Shown: in pieces, positions 27,748-53,006 of the stretch
Position numbering within the stretch: the stretch's first letter is position 1
Layout: every line of letters begins with the position of its first letter
IMG/VR virus record: IMGVR_UViG_3300028805_000073
Reading direction: 5' to 3' (one strand)
DNA from: a virus
Lineage: Duplodnaviria > Heunggongvirae > Uroviricota > Caudoviricetes
DNA length: 60,395 bases
Notes under the pieces: model-generated
What the model saw: the letters and a program-made list of their open reading frames with translations, nothing else
Databases searched by the model: none
Told to the model about the DNA's origin: nothing
Translations under genes and position numbers: made by a program

Positions 27748-28012
27748 CTTCTGGATAAATTTTAACTCCTCTAAAATATTTTACTCTGTGTAATTGTCTC
27801 TAGACAAGTTCTTGTTCAACAAATTTTAAAAAATCTTCTGCATTTAAATCTGCAGCCAAATGTAATTGTGGTTTATCTGGATTATCTAAATCTATGACAG
27901 CCTTGTATCCAGTCCCACCCAACCCTAGTTTAGTCACTTTAATTCCTCCAGTGTATTTACATTTGTATTTACACTCGATTATTTTTAAAATGGCTTCTTC
28001 CATACTATTCAT
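27716..28012 (-). CDS. Conserved small protein between terminase and portal (98 aa, TAG=Gln)
   Basis: Track ORF 27800-28012 reads through TAG to TGA at 27716. Confidence 0.65.
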
Positions 28013-31000
28013 CTATATCTCGGATCACTTGTTATGTTATAACCTTGGACATATCCAGTATTTATATTTCCTCTAACTTTATTGTCTTCAGGTTTAGGAA
28101 TTATTCCAAATTTTATATTTCCTTTTTCGTCTCTATAGTATCCAACATCTCTAAATTCCTAAGATGCTGGTTTCTATTGAGTTGGAACCACTTCGGATAA
28201 TTCTTCATCTGCTATTTCTGCCATTTGCATAGCAGCTACTATATCAAATTTTCCTTTGTTTTCGTCAGAATATTTTAGTAATTGATTTAACATTTCTAAG
28301 AACCACATTTCAGAATAATAATCTTCTATATAAGATGCAACTAATTCTAATCCATGTTGAATCATTGCTACAGTTGCTGTTGTTCCATAAGGAGTATTAA
28401 AACTTCTTTTTTTATTAGGATCTCCTTGACATACTCTTGGTCTTCTCATAAAATACTACATCCATTTCTCTTTTTTAGCCCAAGTAAGTATTCCAACTTT
28501 AGATGCTTCAAGATTTGCAACTGCATTATAATAGTACATTAATGCTAATGTCTATTCATATGCTTCTTCTATACGTTGTGGTCTATCTAAATAGTAAGCT
28601 ACATACATTGGAGATTTCATTCCGTGTATTCTTCTTTTTATTACAGCACAAAATTTAGATGGATTTTTAGTAGCTTCAGAAGTATCTTGCTATCCTAAAT
28701 CAATTCCGTCTATCCCAGTAACATAAAGACTATTCATTTTACTAAAAGATACTCCTTCTTCTAAGGATTTTCTTTCCATAAATTCTTCTTCGGATTCTCC
28801 TGGTTCTCTATCATATCCATTTCTAATTTCCCATAAAGGATGCTAAAGTATATGAACTGGTCCATTAGGATGAGGTTTAAATCTTACTCCTGAAATATTT
28901 TCTCTTTTATGATTAGGACTACTGTATATAAATTCCATATATCCAGTTTCCACTTTAGGAACATAATTTTTTTTAAATTTAATAGAACTTATTTGCTCTA
29001 TTATTTTTACTTTATTAAATATGTTTTGTCCTTCAAGAGCAAATGCTTCACTAGGATAAAAGCAATATTCAGCTTTATAATCAATCAAAGCTTTTGGAGA
29101 AGATTCTAATTTTCTTCTTTCTTCTTCGTAAAATTCAGTAGCTTTTTTAATATTACATACTCCTCTTTTATCAACATATCCTTCTCTATAAAAAGCTATA
29201 TTAGATGGAATAAAGAAAGCTGTCTTAACCCAATCTCCTTCTTCATTATAATTATTTAGAAATGGTAAAACATTATAAGCTTCTGGATTATAGAACATAT
29301 CTGATAATCCTTCAAGTCCATCACGGTCACCACCAGTACCTCCAGCCATTCTTATACCAAATCTATTACCTCCAATTTCTACAAGAGCATTTCCTTTAAT
29401 ATAAGATTGTCTAAGAACAGGATTAGAACCAGCCTCTTCATAAATAAGTAAATCAACACGATCACCTCTTATTTTTCTATCATTATCAGCTACAATTGCT
29501 TCAATTAAACTTCCCCAACCATCTTCTACCTTTTGACCATTAACCATTTTATAGTAAGATGCTTTTTTAGCCATCTATTTATCAAGTACTTGTCTTAACT
29601 TAAAGAATCCTCCATCAGTATTATCATTTGCAAATGTCATTCCACCCCATACTTTATCAAGAGATTTATCTACATAATTCTAAGCATTTGCTGTAAGCAT
29701 ACATACTGAATTAGGATAACAATTATAAATTTGATTACAAATAGCAGCATTTATTTCGGAAAACCCTCACTTTGTTATCGTATAGGCTTTTTATCCTATA
29801 CTTCTTATAGTTTCCTATAAGGTCAGCGTACATCATCATCTTTCTCTTTAGAGTTAAGATGTTCCGAACTCTTGGGAAGATTATTGCTCTCATTAACGCT
29901 CACTTCCTACGCGTTACAGTGCTCAGAGATGATCTGAGTTACCTCGGTGTTAACATAATAATCAAATTTTTTATATTTTCTACTTAAATAAAAATTAGAA
30001 TCATCATATAGTAAATGAAAAATCTTTTCTGCTTCTTTCTTTGATGCAGTACATATTCTATACATATTATCTCTTTTTAGATAGTTAATATTCATTTTTA
30101 TATTGTTATCTGAAAAGAATTTCAAAAAATCATTAAATATAGAAATAGTTTTTCCATCAATATTTACATGAACCCTTACTCTTGGATTAGGCCTGTTTTT
30201 ATCTTGATATACTCCTCCAGTTATACATCCATCTCCGTCAAAATATCCTCTAACAAAATGTCTAATTAATTCTTTAGGAATATTTGGAATATGTAATTCG
30301 GCATAACTTTTATTATATCCAAATCCTAAATTTACTAAATCATTACATAATTCAACACTTGTTATATCTACTCCATAAGATTCATGTGCATGAACTTTCA
30401 TTCCATTTCTTCCAGAAGTTATGTGTTCTTCTTTTTTAAATGTATAAGCATTTGGACTTATTATATCTTTATAAAGATTTACTATTTCAGAATCTCCTAT
30501 TTGTAAGTGTATTCTAAAAGTTTTTCTTTTTTCATTAATACTTCCGTCTGCTGCATAAAATCCTAAAAGATATGCTTGAAGTTCTGTTTCTATCTTAGAG
30601 AAAAAAGAATGTCTAATTTCTCTAGTTGATATATGATGTAATTCTAAGGGATAATTATCCTCAATCAATTTTAATTGTTCTAATTTATTCATAATATTCA
30701 AAATATAAAAATTTAATTATCTTAGCTTTCACCGATTTTTCGGAATTTTGTCATCTGATATTTCTATCAAAAGGGTACTAGGTTTAGTTAATACCTCTAG
30801 CTTTAAACATACAAACATCTTTCTTTAATAATTTACAAAGTTCAAAGTAATGAAAGAATTCATATTGAGAAGTATAGAATTCAGGAAATATATCACGCCT
30901 ACTTGTTCCAAGTTTTTTGACATTAGTTTCTGGTAATTGATAATAATTTAAGAAATAGTAGTAAGTTCCAGGAATAGTATAACCGTTTACAGTCATTCCT

Positions 31001-38585: not shown

Positions 38586-38590
38586 AATTG

Positions 38591-38666
38591 TTGGGGAAGC
38601 AGGATTCGAACCCGCGTAATGCAGAGATTTAGAGTCTCCAGTCTGAGGCCGCTCGACTATTCCCCA
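38591..38666 (-). tRNA. Amber suppressor tRNA, anticodon CUA, probable Gln identity
   Basis: TGGGGAA/TTCCCCA acceptor (U1-A72, G2-C71, G3-C70), anticodon arm GGAGA CT-CTA-AA TCTCT, T arm GCGGG TTCGAAT CCTGC. Confidence 0.92.
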
Positions 38667-39049: not shown

Positions 39050-39215
39050 TACTAATTTATTATATATTATAATTTTTATATACATAAAAAATGTTAAAAA
39101 TCAAAATTTATTTTTTTGTAAAAATTTTTTATTTTTTTTGAAAAATTTTTTTGTTGTGAAAAATTTTTGTAATTTGAAAATTTTTTTTAATTTTTTTGTG
39201 AGGGGGAGGGGACAC
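39050..39215. other. Extremely AT-rich A-tract/T-tract region at the divergence of the two genome halves
   Basis: About five A4-5T5-8 units followed by a GAGGGGAGGGG run. Gene orientation and code usage switch here. Confidence 0.6.
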
Positions 39216-39350
39216 CTATGGCGAGAGCCCCTGGCCTCGCTCATAGGAAAAATAAGTCAAATTTATATTGGTAATATGTCTTCGACAATCGGTATCGAGA
39301 GATTACCATTGTCAGAGTTCACTTATTGTTTTACTTAAAGTTTTAGGATT

Positions 39351-39848
39351 ATGACCGAAAAACAAAAGAAAGAGCTTCAAAAGCTCATTGAGAACCACGA
39401 CGGACGTCGGTTCTCAGAATTGGAAAGTGTTGTGCTCGCACAACAAAGTCGTGAATACCCCGATTTCGGCGGTGACGTTCCCGAGGACGTTTACTATGTT
39501 TTGGGCGTTTTCAATGTCCACACGTGGAAAAATCGCCGTGGCAACGAAACAGAAATTTTGACTGCTGTCGTAGCCAACGAAAAGGGAGATGAATTTGAGG
39601 TGGCTTTTGCCAGTTTCTGCAAAAGGGAGTGGGATTTTGTCAAATTCAATCGTGAAACGAAAGAATACGACAAAGTAGAGTGCAATCCTTTGCTGCCGTT
39701 CTATCCTTCTCTCTCTCAGAGGACAAAGGCTGTTTCTGAAATCAAGCCGATGACCGCTATTAGAATTAAGCGTGCAAGGGGTCACTTTGACAACCCCAAC
39801 AATAGTCGCATTTTCGATTTCAATTACACTTGGGTCGAAAAGGCTTAA
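39351..39848 (+). CDS. Early hypothetical protein
   Basis: Track ORF of 165 aa with higher GC and an A/T-rich leader. Confidence 0.75.
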   Translation: MTEKQKKELQKLIENHDGRRFSELESVVLAQQSREYPDFGGDVPEDVYYVLGVFNVHTWKNRRGNETEILTAVVANEKGDEFEVAFASFCKREWDFVKFNRETKEYDKVECNPLLPFYPSLSQRTKAVSEIKPMTAIRIKRARGHFDNPNNSRIFDFNYTWVEKA

Positions 39849-40062
39849 ATGAAAAATCTTTACAATTAGGGAGTGGTGACAGCACTCCCTTATTTTTTCG
39901 CTTCGCGAGTTTCCGCCCCGAACTGCGTTCGGTAACGGAAATGTAAGCCAGATGTATAGCAATCCCATATTTATAGTGGAATAATGTGTATAACATATTT
40001 TCACGGTGGTTTAAAGACTACAAACAAAAAATAAACAAACTTAAACAATAGGAGAAAAAAGT

Positions 40063-40497
40063 ATGAAGAAAATGACTTCTTACATCATCACTGGAGTTAA
40101 GGCAGATGATGAGCAGGTTTTTTTGCAGCGTGTTGGTGAACTTCTTGAGCGTAATGATCTTCTTGATCAGTTGACGGAGGGTGTGGCAGTGTCAGCAGTA
40201 ATTGTTGATGAGGCTGCTTTTCTTGATGCTCTTCAGAAGCAGTACAAGGAACGTCTTAACATCGAGATTACTAATTCTAATATCACTATTGATCGTGAAG
40301 GACGTCTGGAACTTGGAGCTATGTCATATGACAGAACTTATTGGTATGCTACAGAAGAGGCTGCTGAAAAAGCTGAGTATCGTGATGGATATGGATCTAA
40401 GGATGAGAAGCATCCATTTCCAGGTCTTAACCATACTACAGACTATCACGTACGTATTTCAAAAGATACTGCTGGTATTAAAGTTTTGTACGTATAA
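40063..40497 (+). CDS. Early hypothetical protein
   Basis: Track ORF of 144 aa preceded by an AAACAAAC-type leader. Confidence 0.75.
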   Translation: MKKMTSYIITGVKADDEQVFLQRVGELLERNDLLDQLTEGVAVSAVIVDEAAFLDALQKQYKERLNIEITNSNITIDREGRLELGAMSYDRTYWYATEEAAEKAEYRDGYGSKDEKHPFPGLNHTTDYHVRISKDTAGIKVLYV

Positions 40498-40612
40498 ATA
40501 CGATATACGCTTCGTCCGTTGTGCTTTGAACAGCGGACCTCCAGCTGGGATCCTTGTGCTGTGAACGAGGAACACCGTACATCATTTATTAACAATTTAA
40601 ATTTTTAAAGTC

Positions 40613-41236
40613 ATGGGAGAAAAAAAGACTAATGACAAGAAAGATCTTCAGAAGATCGTTGACGAGAGTGTAATTAATGCAGTAGCTGCTGCCAGTGGTA
40701 ACCTGAAGGGTGAGTCTTATGACTCTTTCGAGAAGGCCCTCGAGATTGCTAAGAAGGATGGTGAATCCTTCTTCAATCCGACACTCTCACAGTACAAGGA
40801 AGGTTTGGTGATCAACACCAATCGTGATGTCGTCAAAATCAAGCGTGTACCTGTGGGAACTCGTGGCAACAAGGCATGGTGTATTACCTGTCCTGCTGGT
40901 TATCAGAAGGGTGATGAAATTGTTTACGATCAGGCTTTCAATTTCTATCCCAGCACTCTGCGTAAGACCATCCAGGTGACCGATGAGGTTGGTGATCCGA
41001 TGCTCGACGAGAAGAAACAGCCTATCACGATCGACGGTGCTGGCAACCAGGTATGGGAAGGTGCTCGCGGTTGTAACAACCCTGAGGAGCTCCTGGAGTA
41101 TTCCGTCGACAAGGTGCTGAAGGTTATCGACATCAAGCGTGACTTCGGTCCTGTTGGCTTCGTTGAGAAGAACGGCGTAAACCGTGCTACAGGTCACAAG
41201 ATCACCTCACTGCCTTTATTCGATCAGATCGGTTAA
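40613..41236 (+). CDS. Early protein with strongly biased codon usage (possibly highly expressed nucleic-acid binder)
   Basis: Track ORF of 207 aa. Function not assignable from sequence. Confidence 0.7.
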   Translation: MGEKKTNDKKDLQKIVDESVINAVAAASGNLKGESYDSFEKALEIAKKDGESFFNPTLSQYKEGLVINTNRDVVKIKRVPVGTRGNKAWCITCPAGYQKGDEIVYDQAFNFYPSTLRKTIQVTDEVGDPMLDEKKQPITIDGAGNQVWEGARGCNNPEELLEYSVDKVLKVIDIKRDFGPVGFVEKNGVNRATGHKITSLPLFDQIG

Positions 41237-41454
41237 TGGCAACTGGTGAACTGCTTACTTTCTGGGGTAAATTAAGGAAGAATAATTCCTTAGTTACCTC
41301 AGAAGGTACTCTTCGAGAAGTAATTTACGACCCTGAAATGGTAGCACCTGGTATGTATGGTTACTTCTTGGTAATGAAAAGGAGAAAAAAATATCAAATT
41401 CTGAAATTTTTAAGTGAAACAATAGTGAGACAATTAGTTCCTAGTTCGAGATGA
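41236..41454 (+). CDS. Small hypothetical protein
   Basis: Track ORF; start overlaps the previous stop. Confidence 0.55.
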   Translation: MATGELLTFWGKLRKNNSLVTSEGTLREVIYDPEMVAPGMYGYFLVMKRRKKYQILKFLSETIVRQLVPSSR

Positions 41455-41762
41455 ATTGGGAACTAATTTTATTTAAATCTCATATAGAGTTTCACAATAA
41501 CAAGGATTAAGTGTATAAAATAAGCTTCTTACATAAGGATTTGATCAAAATTCTTTAGTGAGAGATATGCTCGAAGGCACTGTCAGCAGACCCACCTTCA
41601 ACACTCAAACTCACTCAACTTTAATCTCAAAAATCGGGATTTTGAACAAGTATTAGAATTGAGTTATCATTAACACAAAAAAATATTCATTTCTAATATA
41701 TTAGAAAATTTTAAAAAAATTGGTTGAGTATAAACCAACAGAATTTTTAAAATCCTATAAAA

Positions 41763-41822
41763 ATACCTCTGATGAGTCTTGGAAGATTAAGACGAAACCT
41801 AGAAATTTCGATGGTCAGGTAT
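41763..41822 (+). ncRNA. Hammerhead ribozyme (type I)
   Basis: Stem I ATACCT/AGGTAT, core CTGATGA, stem II GTCTT/AAGAC, GAAA, stem III CC/GG, GUC cleavage triplet (cut after 41816). Confidence 0.9.
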
Positions 41823-41842
41823 AAACAAACAACAACAACAAT

Positions 41843-42178
41843 ATGAAAGAAGAAGTTTTTATTTTAATTATCACATGTGTAGAACCTAAAGATGTGAAAA
41901 AGGTATCAAATTCTGCAATTATGTTTCTTAATTTTAAGGAAGCATTAGATTATGCAAGAAAAGATGCTGAGTATTATAAATATCTTACATCAACATATAC
42001 TGAACGTATTGGGGATAATAAGTGTCATGCTGAGATAAAATTGTATGGAAAGTACATCAACAAAACATACAGAATATCTAATATGGCAAAAGGTGGACCG
42101 TGTGGTGAGAAACATCTGGAAAATCGTATGAATACATATTATACATATGATTACTATGATGGAGAAATTTTATTCTAA
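41843..42178 (+). CDS. Hypothetical protein directly downstream of the hammerhead
   Basis: Track ORF of 111 aa with an AAACAAACAACAACAACAAT leader. Confidence 0.7.
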   Translation: MKEEVFILIITCVEPKDVKKVSNSAIMFLNFKEALDYARKDAEYYKYLTSTYTERIGDNKCHAEIKLYGKYINKTYRISNMAKGGPCGEKHLENRMNTYYTYDYYDGEILF

Positions 42179-42461
42179 AAATAGCAAAGCTCCCACCGCT
42201 ATACAAAAAGTGTGGGAGCATTAAAAAACTCAATATAAAATATCTCAAGACAAGGATTATACCAAAATTCTTGTGTGGATAGGGAAACAGGTGGTGCTGT
42301 CCTTGATAGAAAAAGAGATTTCCAAGATGTTGAGGACGCCAGTTTCTTAGTGTGGCAAGGAGTATCTAACCTTGTGGATTGCATTGGATGTAAAAGCTAT
42401 GATACTAAGTTTTAGGTGTAAAACACTCAAATAATCTTTAAAACAAACAAACAAAACAATT

Positions 42462-42698
42462 ATGAAAAATATTGAGCTGAAATTTAAAAATGGTGAAGTT
42501 GATATGTATATTACAAAGTCAACAGACGATTTAAAGCTTCCATCATTGGGATTTAGGTATGAAGAAGATGCCGAACTTGCTATTGCAATTGCAAAAGCTA
42601 TTAAGGCACGTGAAGGTCGTGATTATTGGATAGAGATGCATGATGCAGTAAAGTATGTATTTCGCACTCTTAATCTACAGGATTCTGGTTGGACATAA
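42462..42698 (+). CDS. Small hypothetical protein
   Basis: Track ORF with an A/C-rich leader. Confidence 0.7.
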   Translation: MKNIELKFKNGEVDMYITKSTDDLKLPSLGFRYEEDAELAIAIAKAIKAREGRDYWIEMHDAVKYVFRTLNLQDSGWT

Positions 42699-42704
42699 TA
42701 AAAT

Positions 42705-43140
42705 AATAAAACTCCTATAAACCAAGAGGGGAGTATAAATAAAAAGCTTGGTTGGATGAGAGTGATTACCTGTAATCTGTAAAATGTTGGTTCCAAAGAC
42801 CTGTCCGCAATCAGAGGTTATAGTAAGGTGATAAGCTATTCCTTACAAACTCTTTGTTATCTAGAGTATAAACTAAACGTGGTCAATCACTAGGAGATAA
42901 CTAAGTGTCCTTGTGGTACCGAAGGGAAATCGGTACAACTCCGTGCGTTGTAGAAAGGAGTATAAATAATACGCTATAGCTTTGGTGTCTGCAGACACTG
43001 ACTTCCCAACCTCTTGAGAGAAGTAAAACAATAGATAGAGGTGAGCGGCAGTGATATAAAACACTGTCCACAACCACTAGTGAATAGAAACCTATGAAAT
43101 TATAGGGTAGTGGCAGGAGTAAATTCCCTGAAAATAATTT
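42705..43140 (+). ncRNA. Candidate large structured ncRNA (block 1)
   Basis: No credible ORF. Many hairpins, including GTACCGA/TCGGTAC, CCACTA/TAGTGG, CAGTG/CACTG and long-range AGTGATT/AATCACT. Confidence 0.45.
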
Positions 43141-43379
43141 CAATGTTTATAATATATGCCAGTATATTGTGTTCCGTATCGTTGATAGCTGGCACTATCA
43201 ATTGACGTAAGTAGACCTAATTACTTAATTATAAGTCCTGGAATATTAGGCTCGCTCTGGAATGAGGTGACTAGAGAATTAATTTGTAAGATCTGGATAC
43301 TATGGCAATAGATCGTGATGCCAGACTTTAATCCTCAAAGCGTGAGAGGATTTTAATTTTTTAATTATGAAACTTATTT

Positions 43380-43985
43380 AGTAAAATGTCGTAGCCGAAC
43401 TTCATTCGTTACCAACTGAATGGTGGAGTTCATATGGCTGAGGAGAGGCAGTTGGTCGTTGCACACATGGCGGACATGAAAAGTAGGATGAAAGACTAGT
43501 AAGTGTTGATGTCTGATTCCAAAACTCGAAGATGATAGAGTATAAGCAGTATCATCCATTCCTACGTGACATCTTGGAATTCGTAGTGAGGGAAACAAAG
43601 AGTATAAAACAAATCCTTAACAAGATAAGGTTGGCAGTTCGGAATAGAACGACAATTAAAATCCAGGAAGTACAACTGGTCGGTGATACAACCCATAGCC
43701 GTTATAACATGAAGGGGAGTCTCGATAAGCATGTATGTAATGTAAAACGAGCAAGTACTTGAAATATAGTACGTAGCAAGCGAATTACCTCTAGCTAGGA
43801 GGACAATCTGAAATAATATTCACGTCGAAATTTCACTGATGATTACCGAGAACTAATGCTCGGATTCTACATGGTTGTTTTTAGGATAATACAACGTAGT
43901 AGGGGATAAACGACGTAAAATAAATCCCGAAATTGTTAAGTTTGTTTGCTCTCCATCCATAATTGGGTGGATGGAGAGATTTTTT
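43380..43985 (+). ncRNA. Candidate large structured ncRNA (block 2) ending in a terminator
   Basis: Hairpins GAACTTCA/TGGAGTTC, CTACG/CGTAG, CCGAG/CTCGG and GGGAT/ATCCC, then CTCCATCCA/TGGATGGAG plus a T run. Confidence 0.45.
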
Positions 43986-44282
43986 AAACTAAACAATATG
44001 AAACTAAAACATTTAGCAATATGAAAAAGTGGAAATTTTCAAACAAATTCCAGGATTATTTCTGGGGGTTTGTATTCACAGTATGTGCACTACTGTGGAT
44101 ATGGGTAGCTGCCTTATTTGTATAATAAATCTTATTTATCTCTCTTGACTCACATATGCAATCAGTGAGTATAATAAATAGATGCAAGCATCATTACTAG
44201 GATGGTGAGATAATTGAACTAAGTGTTGACTTTGTGTTATTATCCTGAAAGGATCCTAGTTCCTTTCTTCTTTTTTAATAAT

Positions 44283-44477
44283 ATGAAGACAAATAAAAGT
44301 TTTATGCAACTTGATCCAAATCGTTTGAGTTGCACACTGGAGGAATCTTGTAACAGATTTCTCAAAACGCATAAAGGACTTCAGTATCTTTTAATGAAGT
44401 TCTCAAATCTCTCACTCCAAGATGCTATCCAGGAGTATAAAAATAAGGAAGCAGAAGCAGAATTTTATTGTCCTTAA
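44283..44477 (+). CDS. Small hypothetical protein
   Basis: ATG-trimmed track ORF 44223-44477. Confidence 0.5.
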   Translation: MKTNKSFMQLDPNRLSCTLEESCNRFLKTHKGLQYLLMKFSNLSLQDAIQEYKNKEAEAEFYCP

Positions 44478-44490
44478 AACACTTAACAGT

Positions 44491-44916
44491 ATGAAAAGAA
44501 AAAATTACATGGCTTTGACCGAGAGCCTTAACAAGTTCCGTATGGAAAACCGGTCAAAGACATTTACTCGTGAAGAATTGATTGAATCTCTTTATAAAAT
44601 GGGATTCAATCGAGGAGTGGCTGGAATGATTATTTCAAAATTTATTCCAGCAGAAAAAATGGGCACATCCAAACTCTATAGTTTTGGAACAGATCCAATC
44701 CATAATAAAGCCATAGAAGCAATTTATCGAAAATTTGCTTCGTATGGTACTGATTCTAAGAAGCAGCCAGCTCAATTACCTAATGAGGAATCCCTCATTA
44801 ACAAGGTAAAAGAAATGGGTTATCAAATCCGCAAATGTGTTGGATTTGATATGGAAAGGTTCAAAAAGGAACAGCCGTTCATGTATCAAAAATATTTGAG
44901 ATATGAGTCCGTTTGA
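44491..44916 (+). CDS. Hypothetical protein (possible winged-helix)
   Basis: ATG-trimmed track ORF, 141 aa. Confidence 0.7.
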   Translation: MKRKNYMALTESLNKFRMENRSKTFTREELIESLYKMGFNRGVAGMIISKFIPAEKMGTSKLYSFGTDPIHNKAIEAIYRKFASYGTDSKKQPAQLPNEESLINKVKEMGYQIRKCVGFDMERFKKEQPFMYQKYLRYESV

Positions 44917-45022
44917 AGCGATACAAATAGCCAGGAAGTATAATCTTGAAGCTGAAGTTCGTCAAGAACTAGCTTCAGGATTAACTCCTGAAGAAGCACT
45001 TGAAGAATGGGATATAAATTAA
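44903..45022 (+). CDS. Small acidic protein (39 aa)
   Basis: MSPFEAIQIARKYNLEAEVRQELASGLTPEEALEEWDIN. Confidence 0.55.
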   Translation: MSPFEAIQIARKYNLEAEVRQELASGLTPEEALEEWDIN

Positions 45023-45437
45023 AAAATAATATGTATATAACAATAGAAGAAAAAAATCCTCAACTTAATCAAGAATGTAATAATATAAAGTTGAGGTCCA
45101 AAAACGGAAATACTCTTTTTATTGAAGAGATAGATGGAAATCTTGTAATAAGAAATAATTAATCGGTAACCAATCCGAACTCTAGAGTGTCCCAATTAAA
45201 TTCTTGAAGGGACTAATAAAATACAAGGGTTTAAGAAACTGTACCACAATTAGCTACTGTGGAATAATACAGAGCTTCCAGGTTCTCAGCGCGCTGCTCT
45301 TACTGGATATTTTATTAATAGCTAAACAAACAAAACAATATGAAAGAATATACAATTAATATGCGTAAAGATGGTTCTGCCGTCATTGCTAAAGTTGTCC
45401 AAAGAAGAAGTAGAAAAATTATTAAAATAACTTAAAT

Positions 45438-45899
45438 ATGATAACAGATTTTATTTATAATGATATTGTTCTTTATTGTAAAGGATGGTATCAGAAGAAT
45501 GGAAATATGTTAGAAGATTTAGGTTATTTATTCTCTAAAATATATACTTGGACTCCTAAGACAGAAAAAGAAATAGGGCATATGATGCTTATTGTTCTTG
45601 ATGAATTGTATGATAAGTTAGATAAGCCTATCAATTCTTATAGATTTTATAATAAACATTCTATATTTATGGAAGAAATTTCTAAATATATGAGTTTATA
45701 TGGAATCTCTATGGATATGGCAATTATTTATCTTGTAAGAAACGTACTTCAAGGATTATCTCAAAATGAGATTAAACTCAAAGCTCCTCATTATGGAAAA
45801 AAAGAATATTTCAGAATGGGAAGTTTATCTAGAATAAATCCGATAAGTATGACTTATACTGAGATGAATAGAAGAACAAAGAAGATATTCAATAAATAA
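45438..45899 (+). CDS. Hypothetical protein
   Basis: Track ORF of 153 aa. Confidence 0.7.
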   Translation: MITDFIYNDIVLYCKGWYQKNGNMLEDLGYLFSKIYTWTPKTEKEIGHMMLIVLDELYDKLDKPINSYRFYNKHSIFMEEISKYMSLYGISMDMAIIYLVRNVLQGLSQNEIKLKAPHYGKKEYFRMGSLSRINPISMTYTEMNRRTKKIFNK

Positions 45900-46119
45900 A
45901 AGTTAGCACCGCAAAGTCCGTAAAAAGTACACGGCGTCCCGATGTGCACCCCATGCTGCTCTTAAATACTAGTTTAGAGAAACAGGTGAAATCCAGATAT
46001 AAGTATGCGTCGACGAATAAAACTGGAGAACTAACTTTTGGTAAACAACTCCTCGCTTTACTCTAAATATTGTAGAGAGTTTGAAGTCTGTTTCAACAAT
46101 TTCTTTTGGACTTCATTTA

Positions 46120-46258
46120 AGCCAGATAGCTCAGATAATATAAGAGCGCTTCTGTTAACAAGTACATCATATGGCTTGCACAATGTTCGGACAAACCTTA
46201 AGGTATAACCCCGATTAACATAGAGAAGAGGTCGTTGGTGTAAATCCAACTCTGGCTA
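46120..46258 (+). ncRNA. tRNA-like RNA with a branched insertion replacing the anticodon loop
   Basis: Acceptor AGCCAGA/TCTGGCT, D stem GCTC/GAGC, stem CTTCT/AGAAG enclosing about 70 nt, T arm GTTGG TGTAAAT CCAAC. Confidence 0.7.
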
Positions 46259-46319
46259 CATTAACTTTAGACCATATGAGGATAGACGAAGGAAACGATA
46301 GCTATCAGGATTCTAGAGT

Positions 46320-46392
46320 TGGACAATGGTGTAATTGGTAACACACTACTCTTAAAAAAGTGGTATTATAGGTTCGAGTCCTATTTGTCTTC
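46320..46392 (+). tRNA. Degenerate tRNA with a Gln-like body and an 8-nt anticodon loop (CTTAAAAA); probably pseudo
   Basis: D stem GTGT/ACAC, CTACT/AGTGG stem, T arm ATAGG TTCGAGT CCTAT. The acceptor has mismatched terminal pairs. Confidence 0.55.
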
Positions 46393-46582
46393 TAAAAGAG
46401 AATCTACACTCTATAATATAGGACCGGTATGTCCGGATAGCACAATAATAGGTGCGTTGTAGTCGTCCCATTTTAATTATTGAAGGAAAAAGCGGTTTCG
46501 CCCTTCTAGCATCAGGAACGAAAGACCTCTTCACTGAGATACTCCTATATTTATTTTTTAATAACTTTAAACAAATAACAAT

Positions 46583-49426: not shown

Positions 49427-51277
49427 ATGATTACAGTAGAATTAAACAAAAAGAACGAAAACCCATTTTATGGGTGTAGTAACTGTTTGAAATTAGTCGA
49501 ACAAGCAGCAGGTAATATAACTTATTCTATGCTTGATGCAGCATGGAATGAAGTTGCACAAGATATCGAGAAGAGAAAGATGTTCTTTTCAGTACTATTC
49601 TCCATTGGAGATATTACTGGAAGACAGCATAATATCTTTAAAGGAAAGAAAGTAGACTCTGGTGGTAATGCCAATAGAGATGCTTTCAATACCATTTTCC
49701 ATTGGTTATGGAACAATAACAAAAATCAATTCATTAAGTTCATGAACGCTCAGCTATTCAATGAATATCAGTGTTTTGATACATTGTTCCAGAATCGTGT
49801 GCAAACCAAAGGATCAAAGGTGTTGAATGTATTCTCTGCCTATCGTGATCCAGAGTATAAGAAAGCACTTCTTAACTATGTGTATTCTGTTATCAATGGT
49901 ACCAATCCGTTTAACAAGATGCTCATAGCTAAGTTCTTGACCATTCCTCGTACATCTAAGAGACAAGGTCATAAGAAGATGTTTCCTGAAACTCTCAAAA
50001 TTATGAGAGAGAAGAAGGCTTTCTTAGAGGAACTTTCTAAGATGATGGGTTGGGAGATAGCTTTCTTAAAAGGTTATCGTGAATGGCGCAAACAGTACAA
50101 TGGAGAATTGGAATCTGTTCTCTTCTCTACTGGAAAGATTAACGAATTTACTACTAAGGATGAATTCCTTAGTTGGTTTGATAAGCTTCCAGCACAAGCA
50201 CGTTTCCGTGTGAAGAACCGTATTCTTTATTCTAAAGATGGAACTCAAACTATAAATACTAAGAAGAACGATGGTAAAAGTCTTACCATTGTTGCAGATA
50301 AGTATAAGTGGGCTAAGTTCCAGCCTTGGTTAAAGGAATGGGAAACTTACAAGGATAAGAAGCAAGAAGAGCAACGTATTCTTGAAGAGAAAGTTCGTCA
50401 AGGACAGGCATCTGATGAAGATAAGATTAGACTTCAGAAGGTGAAGAAGGAAGCAAAGGTTACAACTGGTGCTATTAACTTTAAAGAGTTGTATGATTCA
50501 ATTCTGAGAGGTAATGTAGACAAGTTAAAACTTGAATCATTCATCCAGAATAAAGTCAATTTGCCATACAATAGTTTGGTAATCATTGACGATTCTGGTT
50601 CAATGAACGGCTCTCCGTTCAGATTTGCGAAGTTTATCGCTTCAGTATGTCTTGTTAAGAATCCAGATGATGATGCTCGTAATCTAATTGGATTCTTTAA
50701 CAGTACTTCTCACTGGCACAGTTTCATTGATCAAACTTCTTCTCGAAGAAATAGTCTTCTTAGAACTCAAATTGCTCAAACTAATGCTAAGCCATTAGTT
50801 GATCCAACCTTGAGTTTCTATGATAACTACTTGAGAATTAGTAGTTTCTGTGAAGCAGTATATCAGGGTGGAGGAACATACATCACAAGTATTCCTAAAG
50901 GTTTAGAGTTTATCATTAAAGAGAATCCAGATTTCTTGGACACTCTTAAAGAGTATCCGATTTGGACAATCTTAAGCGATGGTGACTTGAACAATGATTG
51001 GAATGCTCGTAGTAGTATGCTACAATTCCAGAATGACTGCCGTCGTATTCTTGGTTATGTTCCATTCGTAGTGATGATTGAAATTTATCGCTATGGACAA
51101 CCTTCAATTAACCATTTTGAAGGAATTGAGAATATGATTTACATTCCTGGAAATCCTGCTCAGATTGAACAATTCTTAACCAACTTTAAGGATATGGATA
51201 TCTTTGATGTCTATACTCCATTGTTGAGTCTCTATAGAAGTAATAGGTATGAACTCGTGAGAGCAAATACCCTTTAA
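49427..51277 (+). CDS. TROVE/DUF2828-like protein with C-terminal vWA domain (Ro60-like architecture)
   Basis: MIDAS motif VIIDDSGSM plus later GGT and ILSDGD elements. The helical N-terminus has LF...DI...GG...R..F and AKF..PR elements of the kind seen in DUF2828/TROVE proteins. Family assignment is by recalled motifs. Confidence 0.7.
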   Translation: MITVELNKKNENPFYGCSNCLKLVEQAAGNITYSMLDAAWNEVAQDIEKRKMFFSVLFSIGDITGRQHNIFKGKKVDSGGNANRDAFNTIFHWLWNNNKNQFIKFMNAQLFNEYQCFDTLFQNRVQTKGSKVLNVFSAYRDPEYKKALLNYVYSVINGTNPFNKMLIAKFLTIPRTSKRQGHKKMFPETLKIMREKKAFLEELSKMMGWEIAFLKGYREWRKQYNGELESVLFSTGKINEFTTKDEFLSWFDKLPAQARFRVKNRILYSKDGTQTINTKKNDGKSLTIVADKYKWAKFQPWLKEWETYKDKKQEEQRILEEKVRQGQASDEDKIRLQKVKKEAKVTTGAINFKELYDSILRGNVDKLKLESFIQNKVNLPYNSLVIIDDSGSMNGSPFRFAKFIASVCLVKNPDDDARNLIGFFNSTSHWHSFIDQTSSRRNSLLRTQIAQTNAKPLVDPTLSFYDNYLRISSFCEAVYQGGGTYITSIPKGLEFIIKENPDFLDTLKEYPIWTILSDGDLNNDWNARSSMLQFQNDCRRILGYVPFVVMIEIYRYGQPSINHFEGIENMIYIPGNPAQIEQFLTNFKDMDIFDVYTPLLSLYRSNRYELVRANTL

Positions 51278-52922: not shown

Positions 52923-52999
52923 AGAGAGGTATGCGAATTGGTATAGCAGCTTAAAATTCTAGGTATAAGTGTTTGGGAGTTCGATTCTCTCCCTCTCTA
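52923..52999 (+). tRNA. Aberrant tRNA with Leu-type D arm and irregular anticodon arm (TTCTAGG; UAG or CUA reading ambiguous)
   Basis: Acceptor AGAGAGG/CCTCTCT and intact T arm. CTTA/TAAG encloses 12 nt. Confidence 0.5.
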
Positions 53000-53006
53000 C
53001 CTGATC

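Follow-up and report, generated by a model that had tools for sequence, protein, structure and literature searches.

A small pseudoknot module, known from self-cleaving ribozymes, very probably underlies a cluster of repeated words in the early region of a crAss-like phage

Why does one eight-letter word, GAGTATAA, recur eight times within less than 3 kb of a phage genome? The question is raised by a stretch of viral DNA of 60,395 nucleotides (nt) (IMG/VR record IMGVR_UViG_3300028805_000073; the whole stretch is referred to here as the window), which belongs to a TAG-recoding crAss-like phage from gut or rumen and carries the word cluster at the opening of its early region. An initial annotation had described the copies mostly as the 3' arms of ACTC...GAGT hairpins followed by ATAA, and it offered two explanations, namely, a repeated RNA module that binds protein or makes tertiary contacts, or hairpin promoters for a virion RNA polymerase by analogy with phage N4. 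Our comparison with related sequences supports the tertiary module, on the basis of covariation and of homologs in pistol and hammerhead ribozymes. We are highly confident that, within a small H-type pseudoknot, GAGTATAA represents the 3' strand of stem 1 (GAGU) together with the first letters of the A-rich loop (AUAA), and we consider it likely overall that this known RNA module is reused in early noncoding RNAs as a structural staple.

All eight copies (starting at 41726, 42731, 42864, 42958, 43538, 43600, 44167, and 44433) are present, every one on the + strand. The arms assigned to them were likewise recovered: ACTCC/GGAGT at 42711, 42938, and 44414, ACTCT/AGAGT at 42849, ACTCAC/GTGAGT at 44148, ACTC/GAGT at 43524, and ATTC/GAGT at 43579, with the motif placed in a loop at 41726 and the loop lengths spanning 9 to 17 nt as reported. 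The rough estimate that well under one copy should be expected also holds, since 41700-44500 contains 8 copies, whereas 3,000 dinucleotide shuffles had 0.14 on average and never more than 3; 8-mers with at least two G/C letters never exceeded 5 copies in 300 shuffles. A scan of the whole window, suggested as a check, added a ninth copy at 49853, and the resulting total (9 copies versus 4.6 expected, with 9 being reached in 4 of 100 shuffles) is unremarkable, so that the significance lies in the clustering and not in the total. Nor do the eight copies form one class, even though the word itself repeats: the copy at 41726 lies in a hairpin loop, the one at 43600 is poorly kept, and the one at 44433 is coding. 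Conservation in relatives divides the copies similarly, with modules A, C, and G (Table 1) being kept, the copies at 43600 and 41726 being mostly lost, and module I having no ortholog. The ATTC arm is probably not the partner of the 43600 copy.

The hairpin arms exist, but the description as a hairpin plus ATAA overlooked a second helix, in which the hairpin loop pairs with a downstream strand. In the proposed fold, an ACUC/GAGU stem is followed by an AUAAA linker and then, 7 to 12 nt downstream, by a strand that pairs with the loop of stem 1, giving stem 2. A descriptor of this pseudoknot had 4 matches within 42650-44500, all of them on the + strand, versus 0.10 in shuffles; elsewhere in the window, it had 2. 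Across 70 kb of early regions from the window and its relatives, it had 41 sense versus 3 antisense matches, a few of them being shifted duplicates. In the alignments, both helices are shown to be supported by covariation in A, C, D, and F, and stem 1 is near-invariant in A, C, and G, the compensatory changes in this stem coming from unit F and module D. As judged from the same alignments, stem 2 covaries in A, C, D, and F, is invariant in G, and is at best a candidate in B, I, and J.

Table 1. Features of the word cluster and its surroundings (bp, base pairs; ORF, open reading frame; aa, amino acids; L numbers are our labels for compared records)
Feature	Coordinates	Strand	Remarks
Hairpin with GAGUAUA as its loop	41720..41738	+	AT-rich surroundings; not a module; kept in L014, where one stem pair is compensated; three other orthologs have lost it
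Type I hammerhead ribozyme	41763..41822	+	Predicted cut after 41816
Module A, H-type pseudoknot	42711..42753	+	Stem 1 42711-16/42729-34; stem 2 42720-26/42747-53 (7 bp); A-rich linker 42735-46
Module B	42849..42879	+	Stem 1 ACUCU/AGAGU plus AUAAACUA; stem 2 of 4 bp, doubtful
Module C, pseudoknot	42938..42980	+	Stem 1 42938-42/42957-61; stem 2 42947-53/42974-80
Module D	43001..43042	+	Absent from the initial list; stem 1 ACUUC/GAAGU; linker starts AAAACAA; stem 2 ACCUCU/AGAGGU
Terminator-like hairpin with T-rich tail	43330..43352	+	End of RNA block 1; read from the sequence and kept in relatives; not called by the consensus scan
Module G	43524..43556	+	Stem 1 ACUC/GAGU (4 bp); stem 2 GAUGAUA/UAUCAUC (7 bp)
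Hairpin UGAGGG/UCCUUA	43587..43619	+	43600 copy in the loop; hairpin in 6/7 orthologs, exact word in 2/7
Unit F, pseudoknot with two inserted hairpins	43822..43928	+	Absent from the initial list; stem 1 43822-27/43911-16; linker 43917-23; stem 2 43903-07/43924-28
Intrinsic terminator	43949..43985	+	End of RNA block 2; stem varies yet stays paired in relatives
Module I	44148..44186	+	6-bp stem 1; possible 4- to 6-bp stem 2; candidate
Copy J (44433)	44414..44453	+	In conserved 64-aa ORF 44283-44477, where the word reads Glu-Tyr-Lys; pseudoknot possible, clearly kept in 1/8 homologous ORFs
Ninth copy of GAGTATAA	49853..49860	+	Within a 616-aa ORF; chance or coding; stem 2 score below 93% of controls

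Module A, the first element of RNA block 1, lies 12 nt after a stop codon. Its stem 2 is paired in all eight orthologs, two of which replace CCAAG/CUUGG by CAGAG/CUCUG, with two pairs changed on both sides; a stem 1 variant among the orthologs reads ACUUCC/GGAAGU. For module C, three orthologs form the 7-bp stem 2 through different letters, with compensating changes in L104 and L004, the latter of which carries an additional hairpin within the linker. Six positional orthologs of module D differ in the letters of both stems, and all are paired. The stem 2 of module G scores above 98% of control tails and is almost unchanged in 7 genomes, hence without covariation. Module B has one ortholog and a stem 2 score no better than that of controls (0.58 of control tails), and for module I we searched for an ortholog and found none, its stem 2 not being significant (0.14 of control tails). 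Separately, four relatives (L003:2979-3022, L004:6015-6058, L035:1066-1111, and L104:4434-4477) were seen to have a further cassette between G and F, a pseudoknot with an A-rich linker, which the window lacks. An element resembling module A, whose short stem 2 apparently changes from AAC/GUU to AGC/GCU, occurs in other large viral contigs, namely, L111, L113, L118, L119, L123, L128, L132, L136, and L164.

Unit F was recognized from the alignment with relatives. Among 15 aligned copies, 92% of the cells are paired and 19 of 32 pairs have changed on both sides, including all 5 pairs of stem 1; none of 500 shuffles reached as high a pairing, and slid registers were paired in 31 to 44% of cells. 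A model built without stem 1 retrieved further copies of the unit, in which stem 1 is present. Alignment, model, and pattern search together gave 36 distinct copies, all of which have a stem 1 of 5 to 6 bp, with an average of 5.2 bp when each copy is matched with its own partner strand versus 2.6 bp with swapped partners. GAGTATAA is found in 26 of these 36 copies, and the other 10 have different letters, each with a compensating change about 85 nt upstream. The seven different five-pair cores of stem 1 that we read from these sequences would be hard to account for by descent alone. Directly after stem 1, the linker reads ATAAATAA in 26/36 copies and is A-rich in every one. G.U cells outnumber A.C cells (27 versus 4) on the + strand, which indicates that this is the folded strand. 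The motif CUGANGA is kept, only its N being variable, and GAA usually follows stem 2. A helix closing the unit (AAUUUC/GAAAUU) pairs in the rumen-type set without two-sided changes and is not kept in the other copies. Unit F is present in dozens of large crAss-like contigs and has no Rfam match; all five carrier contigs that we examined encode a related terminase. The model R1 had no match in 35 more distant records, nor in three GenBank stretches. At 43836-43846, CUGANGAUUAC and a AAUUAAUG-type loop are near-invariant in the 36 copies; they fall outside what the pseudoknot explains and may mark a binding or active site.

The module is the 5' subdomain otherwise known from pistol and pseudoknot hammerhead ribozymes. 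The Rfam consensus of pistol (RF02679) opens with acUCG...CGAguAUAAAuA, whose stem and AUAAA linker are those of the module. Of the genome loci fetched by the pistol word, the 14 that were then scanned proved without exception to be true pistols. Both structures have in common the ACUC(G)/(C)GAGU stem, the AUAAA, and a stem loop that pairs with a downstream strand. In contrast to pistol, the module has no P2, P3, GCG, or cleavage-site GU and no Rfam match, its loop measures 9 to 17 or about 85 nt instead of 6 nt, and its linker runs straight into the pseudoknot strand. The RAGATH-1 hammerhead (RF03152) shares with the module helix IV, the AUA4 minor-groove triplex, and the pseudoknot helix, but no CUGANGA/GAAA core with stems I and III is attached to the array copies. 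At the hammerhead site of the window, five relatives carry a RAGATH-1-like pseudoknot hammerhead that contains the module of stem and A-rich linker, showing that the module is used inside a ribozyme as well as alone. The ribozyme ahead of the first small early genes is thus of a different type among relatives (type I versus RAGATH-1-like; 41763-41822 in the window, L104:2225-2295, L102:3727-3799, and L174:4989-5058).

In the structure of pistol, A19 to A21 of the linker form A-minor triples in the minor groove of P1 (PMC6101554); the AUA4 strand of the pseudoknot hammerhead similarly occupies the minor groove of helix IV as a triplex (PMC11300833). By analogy, the A-rich linker of the module would cross stem 1 and lie in its minor groove as A-minor triples, and such a triplex would be the reason why the letters ACUC/GAGU-AUAAA recur in otherwise unrelated units.

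The context suggests that the modules are domains of two early noncoding transcripts, each closed by a terminator, at about 42700-43360 and 43380-43990. Both of these blocks fold better than 20 out of 20 shuffles, and their cassettes are gained, lost, and reordered among relatives. In the crAss-like phage phi14:2, two long early intergenic RNAs have been found to be abundant and persistent (bioRxiv 2020.03.07.982082). Like the blocks described here, these RNAs are noncoding stretches that open the early region of a crAss-like phage; the differences are that no sequence similarity was found, that the phi14:2 paper reports no RNA structure, and that the blocks are known from sequence alone. Rfam holds no family for the units, either in the window or in the orthologous blocks, and no description of the array was found in the literature, our coverage of which was incomplete. 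At 43698-43757, a CTCG...CGAG pair common only to the window and L176 is kept across a variable AT-rich spacer and is possibly another cassette. A block of 32 to 33 nt at 42317-42349, without an Rfam match, shows 100% identity across at least six relatives despite their strong divergence elsewhere; a second fixed block, near 42405-42426, follows it at a variable distance downstream.

As to function, the module may act as a noncatalytic staple that compacts each RNA domain and buries A-rich RNA from host endonucleases specific for single strands (RNase E/G and RNase Y), whereby the RNAs would persist like the long intergenic RNAs of phi14:2. Bacteroidota, which we assume to be the hosts on the basis of the phage group, have RNase E/G and RNase Y, and those tested lack RNase J (PMC10234816). 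We set aside a role as a blocker of 5'-3' exonucleases, which the frequent position of the first module 0 to 12 nt after a stop codon had brought up, because the Bacteroidota tested have no RNase J. That position is an uncontrolled observation, made at L003:2248, L035:324, L173:13028, L174:6810, L252:463, and 42711 of the window; at this distance, a terminating ribosome would overlap the first pseudoknot.

Several points weigh against this interpretation. The stabilizing job of the staple is a proposal, which we hold to be somewhat better than an even bet. Three of the eight copies, those at 41726, 43600, and 44433, are probably not modules, and among the eight, covariation was obtained for A and C only; in B and I, a good first stem is combined with a weak second one, and G, being invariant, could also adopt a plain hairpin as an alternative fold. 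The strongest covariation comes from D and F, neither of which reads GAGTATAA in the window. Registers were assigned manually for C and D, and kinship among the sequences inflates the counts of changed pairs. Furthermore, an unselected search of viral sequences for ACTCC..GGAGTATAAATA found a stem 2 in 12/72 cases compared with 9.6% of controls, and this slight enrichment means that the word alone does not imply the fold; a general viral search with the 17-letter hairpin word returned mostly noise. With respect to expression, the words of 39200-46500 are present at shares of 0.65 and 0.54 in two RNA runs, but these consist of contigs from one sample that give no strand, and they may be DNA.

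A first alternative accepts the fold and differs on its purpose: the modules could be protein-binding decoys, that is, diversified mimics of the antitoxin RNAs of type III systems (of the CptI/ToxI kind) by which a toxin ribonuclease of the host would be titrated. CptI folds into an H-type pseudoknot with an A-rich loop wound along the stem 1 minor groove, and its stem starts with AC and ends with GU before AUAUAAAU, much like the module (PMC4627078). Mimicry of this kind is documented for the pseudo-ToxI of phage TE (PMC5086642), and the cassettes are early and differ between relatives. Our units agree with CptI and pseudo-ToxI in being small H-type pseudoknots whose A-rich loop follows stem 1 and in occurring several to a transcript. 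Against this, type III antitoxins are tandem, near-identical repeats of 34 to 57 nt, whereas the units here are dispersed, dissimilar, irregularly spaced, and embedded in larger RNAs with variable inserts; the array repeats only an 8-mer, and no adjacent toxin gene was seen. Moreover, these systems have mainly been reported in Firmicutes, Fusobacteria, and Proteobacteria, and a review of them does not mention Bacteroidetes (PMC5086642). A search for ToxN-family toxin genes had no match, the positive control likewise remaining without a match. On balance, we regard antitoxin mimicry as unlikely.

In a second alternative, the modules would be remnants or components of self-cleaving ribozymes by which the early transcript is cut into pieces, be it a truncated pistol, a pseudoknot hammerhead, or an unrecognized class, above all unit F. 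The 5' letters match pistol, true ribozymes are present at 41763 in the window and at the corresponding site of relatives, and unit F retains its CUGANGA and, usually, the GAA after stem 2. With a score threshold of 34.5 bits, however, the pistol model had no match at E values up to 5 in the window, nor in five related records, while control pistols scored 44 to 75 bits, and P2, P3, and GCG are absent from all orthologs of module A. Taking the array copies as pistols was therefore rejected. Unit F as a hammerhead with an inserted domain was attractive on four copies but failed on the larger set: there is no covariation in the would-be stem I, where three distinct 5' ends go with one 3' end; three copies have lost GAA; and the distance from A9 to stem 2 is about 65 nt. 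We give little credence to ribozyme relics as the explanation of the array.

Small-molecule aptamers of the preQ1-I, SAM-II, or NAD+-II pseudoknot kind share the general architecture, and the tail of module B presumably resembles that of preQ1-I; this reading is nevertheless very improbable, given that no riboswitch family matches the window sites or the orthologous blocks, that loop letters are conserved neither between nor within module types, and that most copies lie outside 5' leaders.

The promoter option of the initial annotation, in the form of hairpin or sequence promoters for the virion RNA polymerase or of −10-like boxes, fares no better. It agrees with the single orientation of the copies at the start of the early region and with the preference of the crAss-like virion polymerase for single-stranded templates in vitro. 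A strong argument against it is the replacement of the word in 10 of the 36 unit F copies with compensation about 85 nt upstream, meaning that the letters are free as long as pairing is kept. In addition, covariation links the loop to the downstream strand, for which a promoter located ahead of a start site would have no need, and the wobble pairs favor an RNA-like strand. As to position, structured blocks enclose the copies, two of which immediately precede a terminator, and most early genes have no copy ahead of them. An N4 promoter is a hairpin of the template strand whose short, conserved loop is read in sequence and centered at −11 (PMC4496689), an arrangement that was not found here, where loops measure 9 to 17 nt or are far longer. 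Early transcripts of phi14:2 have no common upstream motif (bioRxiv 2020.03.07.982082), and sites resembling sigma-70 promoters were not enriched (15 versus 18). Altogether, we judge a promoter function to be highly improbable. Two unstructured AT-rich words (42223-42244 and 41749-41764), which many relatives conserve immediately ahead of RNA cassettes or ribozymes, would make more plausible promoters than GAGTATAA.

Finally, the arrays of noncoding RNAs (ncRNAs) of UG27 reverse transcriptases in Bacteroidota phages also consist of variable, pseudoknot-bearing RNAs that are gained and lost (10.64898/2026.09.22.753630), but their units share a fold of 135 to 167 nt, which the units here do not, and such an array is unlikely here because the reverse transcriptase family PF00078 is absent from three complete relatives (the control matched in 3 genomes; a very divergent enzyme could escape).

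Regarding the genomic setting, the terminase at 28009-29700 is similar to those of crAss-like phages, and close relatives are contigs of 176 to 183 kb. The left 36 kb hold late genes on the − strand that are open only if TAG is read as Gln; two tRNAs with a CTA anticodon (38590-38666 and 52923-53001, one per strand) are consistent with TAG read-through in these genes. These features match the published description of the Zeta group (PMC7886860), and the phage may belong to a Zeta-like group of Crassvirales, a name that we use for the resemblance to the described combination of a crAss-like terminase, genomes of 145 to 192 kb, late TAG=Gln, and suppressor tRNAs. The sequencing runs that best match the stretch are from sheep gut. 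From about 39200 on, genes are on the + strand, with 42700-44000 being almost devoid of them. Family searches with the ORFs near the cluster gave no informative match, and protein-based locus searches with two small ORFs nearby as queries gave no result. The switch from the late (−) to the early (+) strand is accompanied by a hairpin-containing, G-rich sequence at 39180-39260, which comes after a long T-rich tract and may relate to a genome end or an origin.

Taken together, and by analogy with the ribozyme structures, the locus appears to put a known RNA module to an apparently undescribed use; the fold itself is known, and it is the role that may be new. Going beyond the staple, our guess is that the stable RNAs serve as decoys for host RNA-binding or RNA-cutting defense proteins. 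In its boldest and most tentative form, a shuffled library of triplex-stapled pseudoknot RNAs would be an early, RNA-only counter-defense that decoys toxin ribonucleases or RNA-sensing proteins, with unit F as a widespread, undescribed RNA class with an activity of its own. The units comprise 33 to 107 nt, with helices supported by covariation, a size amenable to probing, cleavage assays, and crystallization. For RNAs such as the abundant early noncoding ones of phi14:2, whose function was left open in that study, the present locus offers a testable anatomy. Our findings also suggest that the scaffold subdomain of the pistol and pseudoknot hammerhead ribozymes is used repeatedly on its own as a building block, a point relevant to how those ribozymes came to be assembled.

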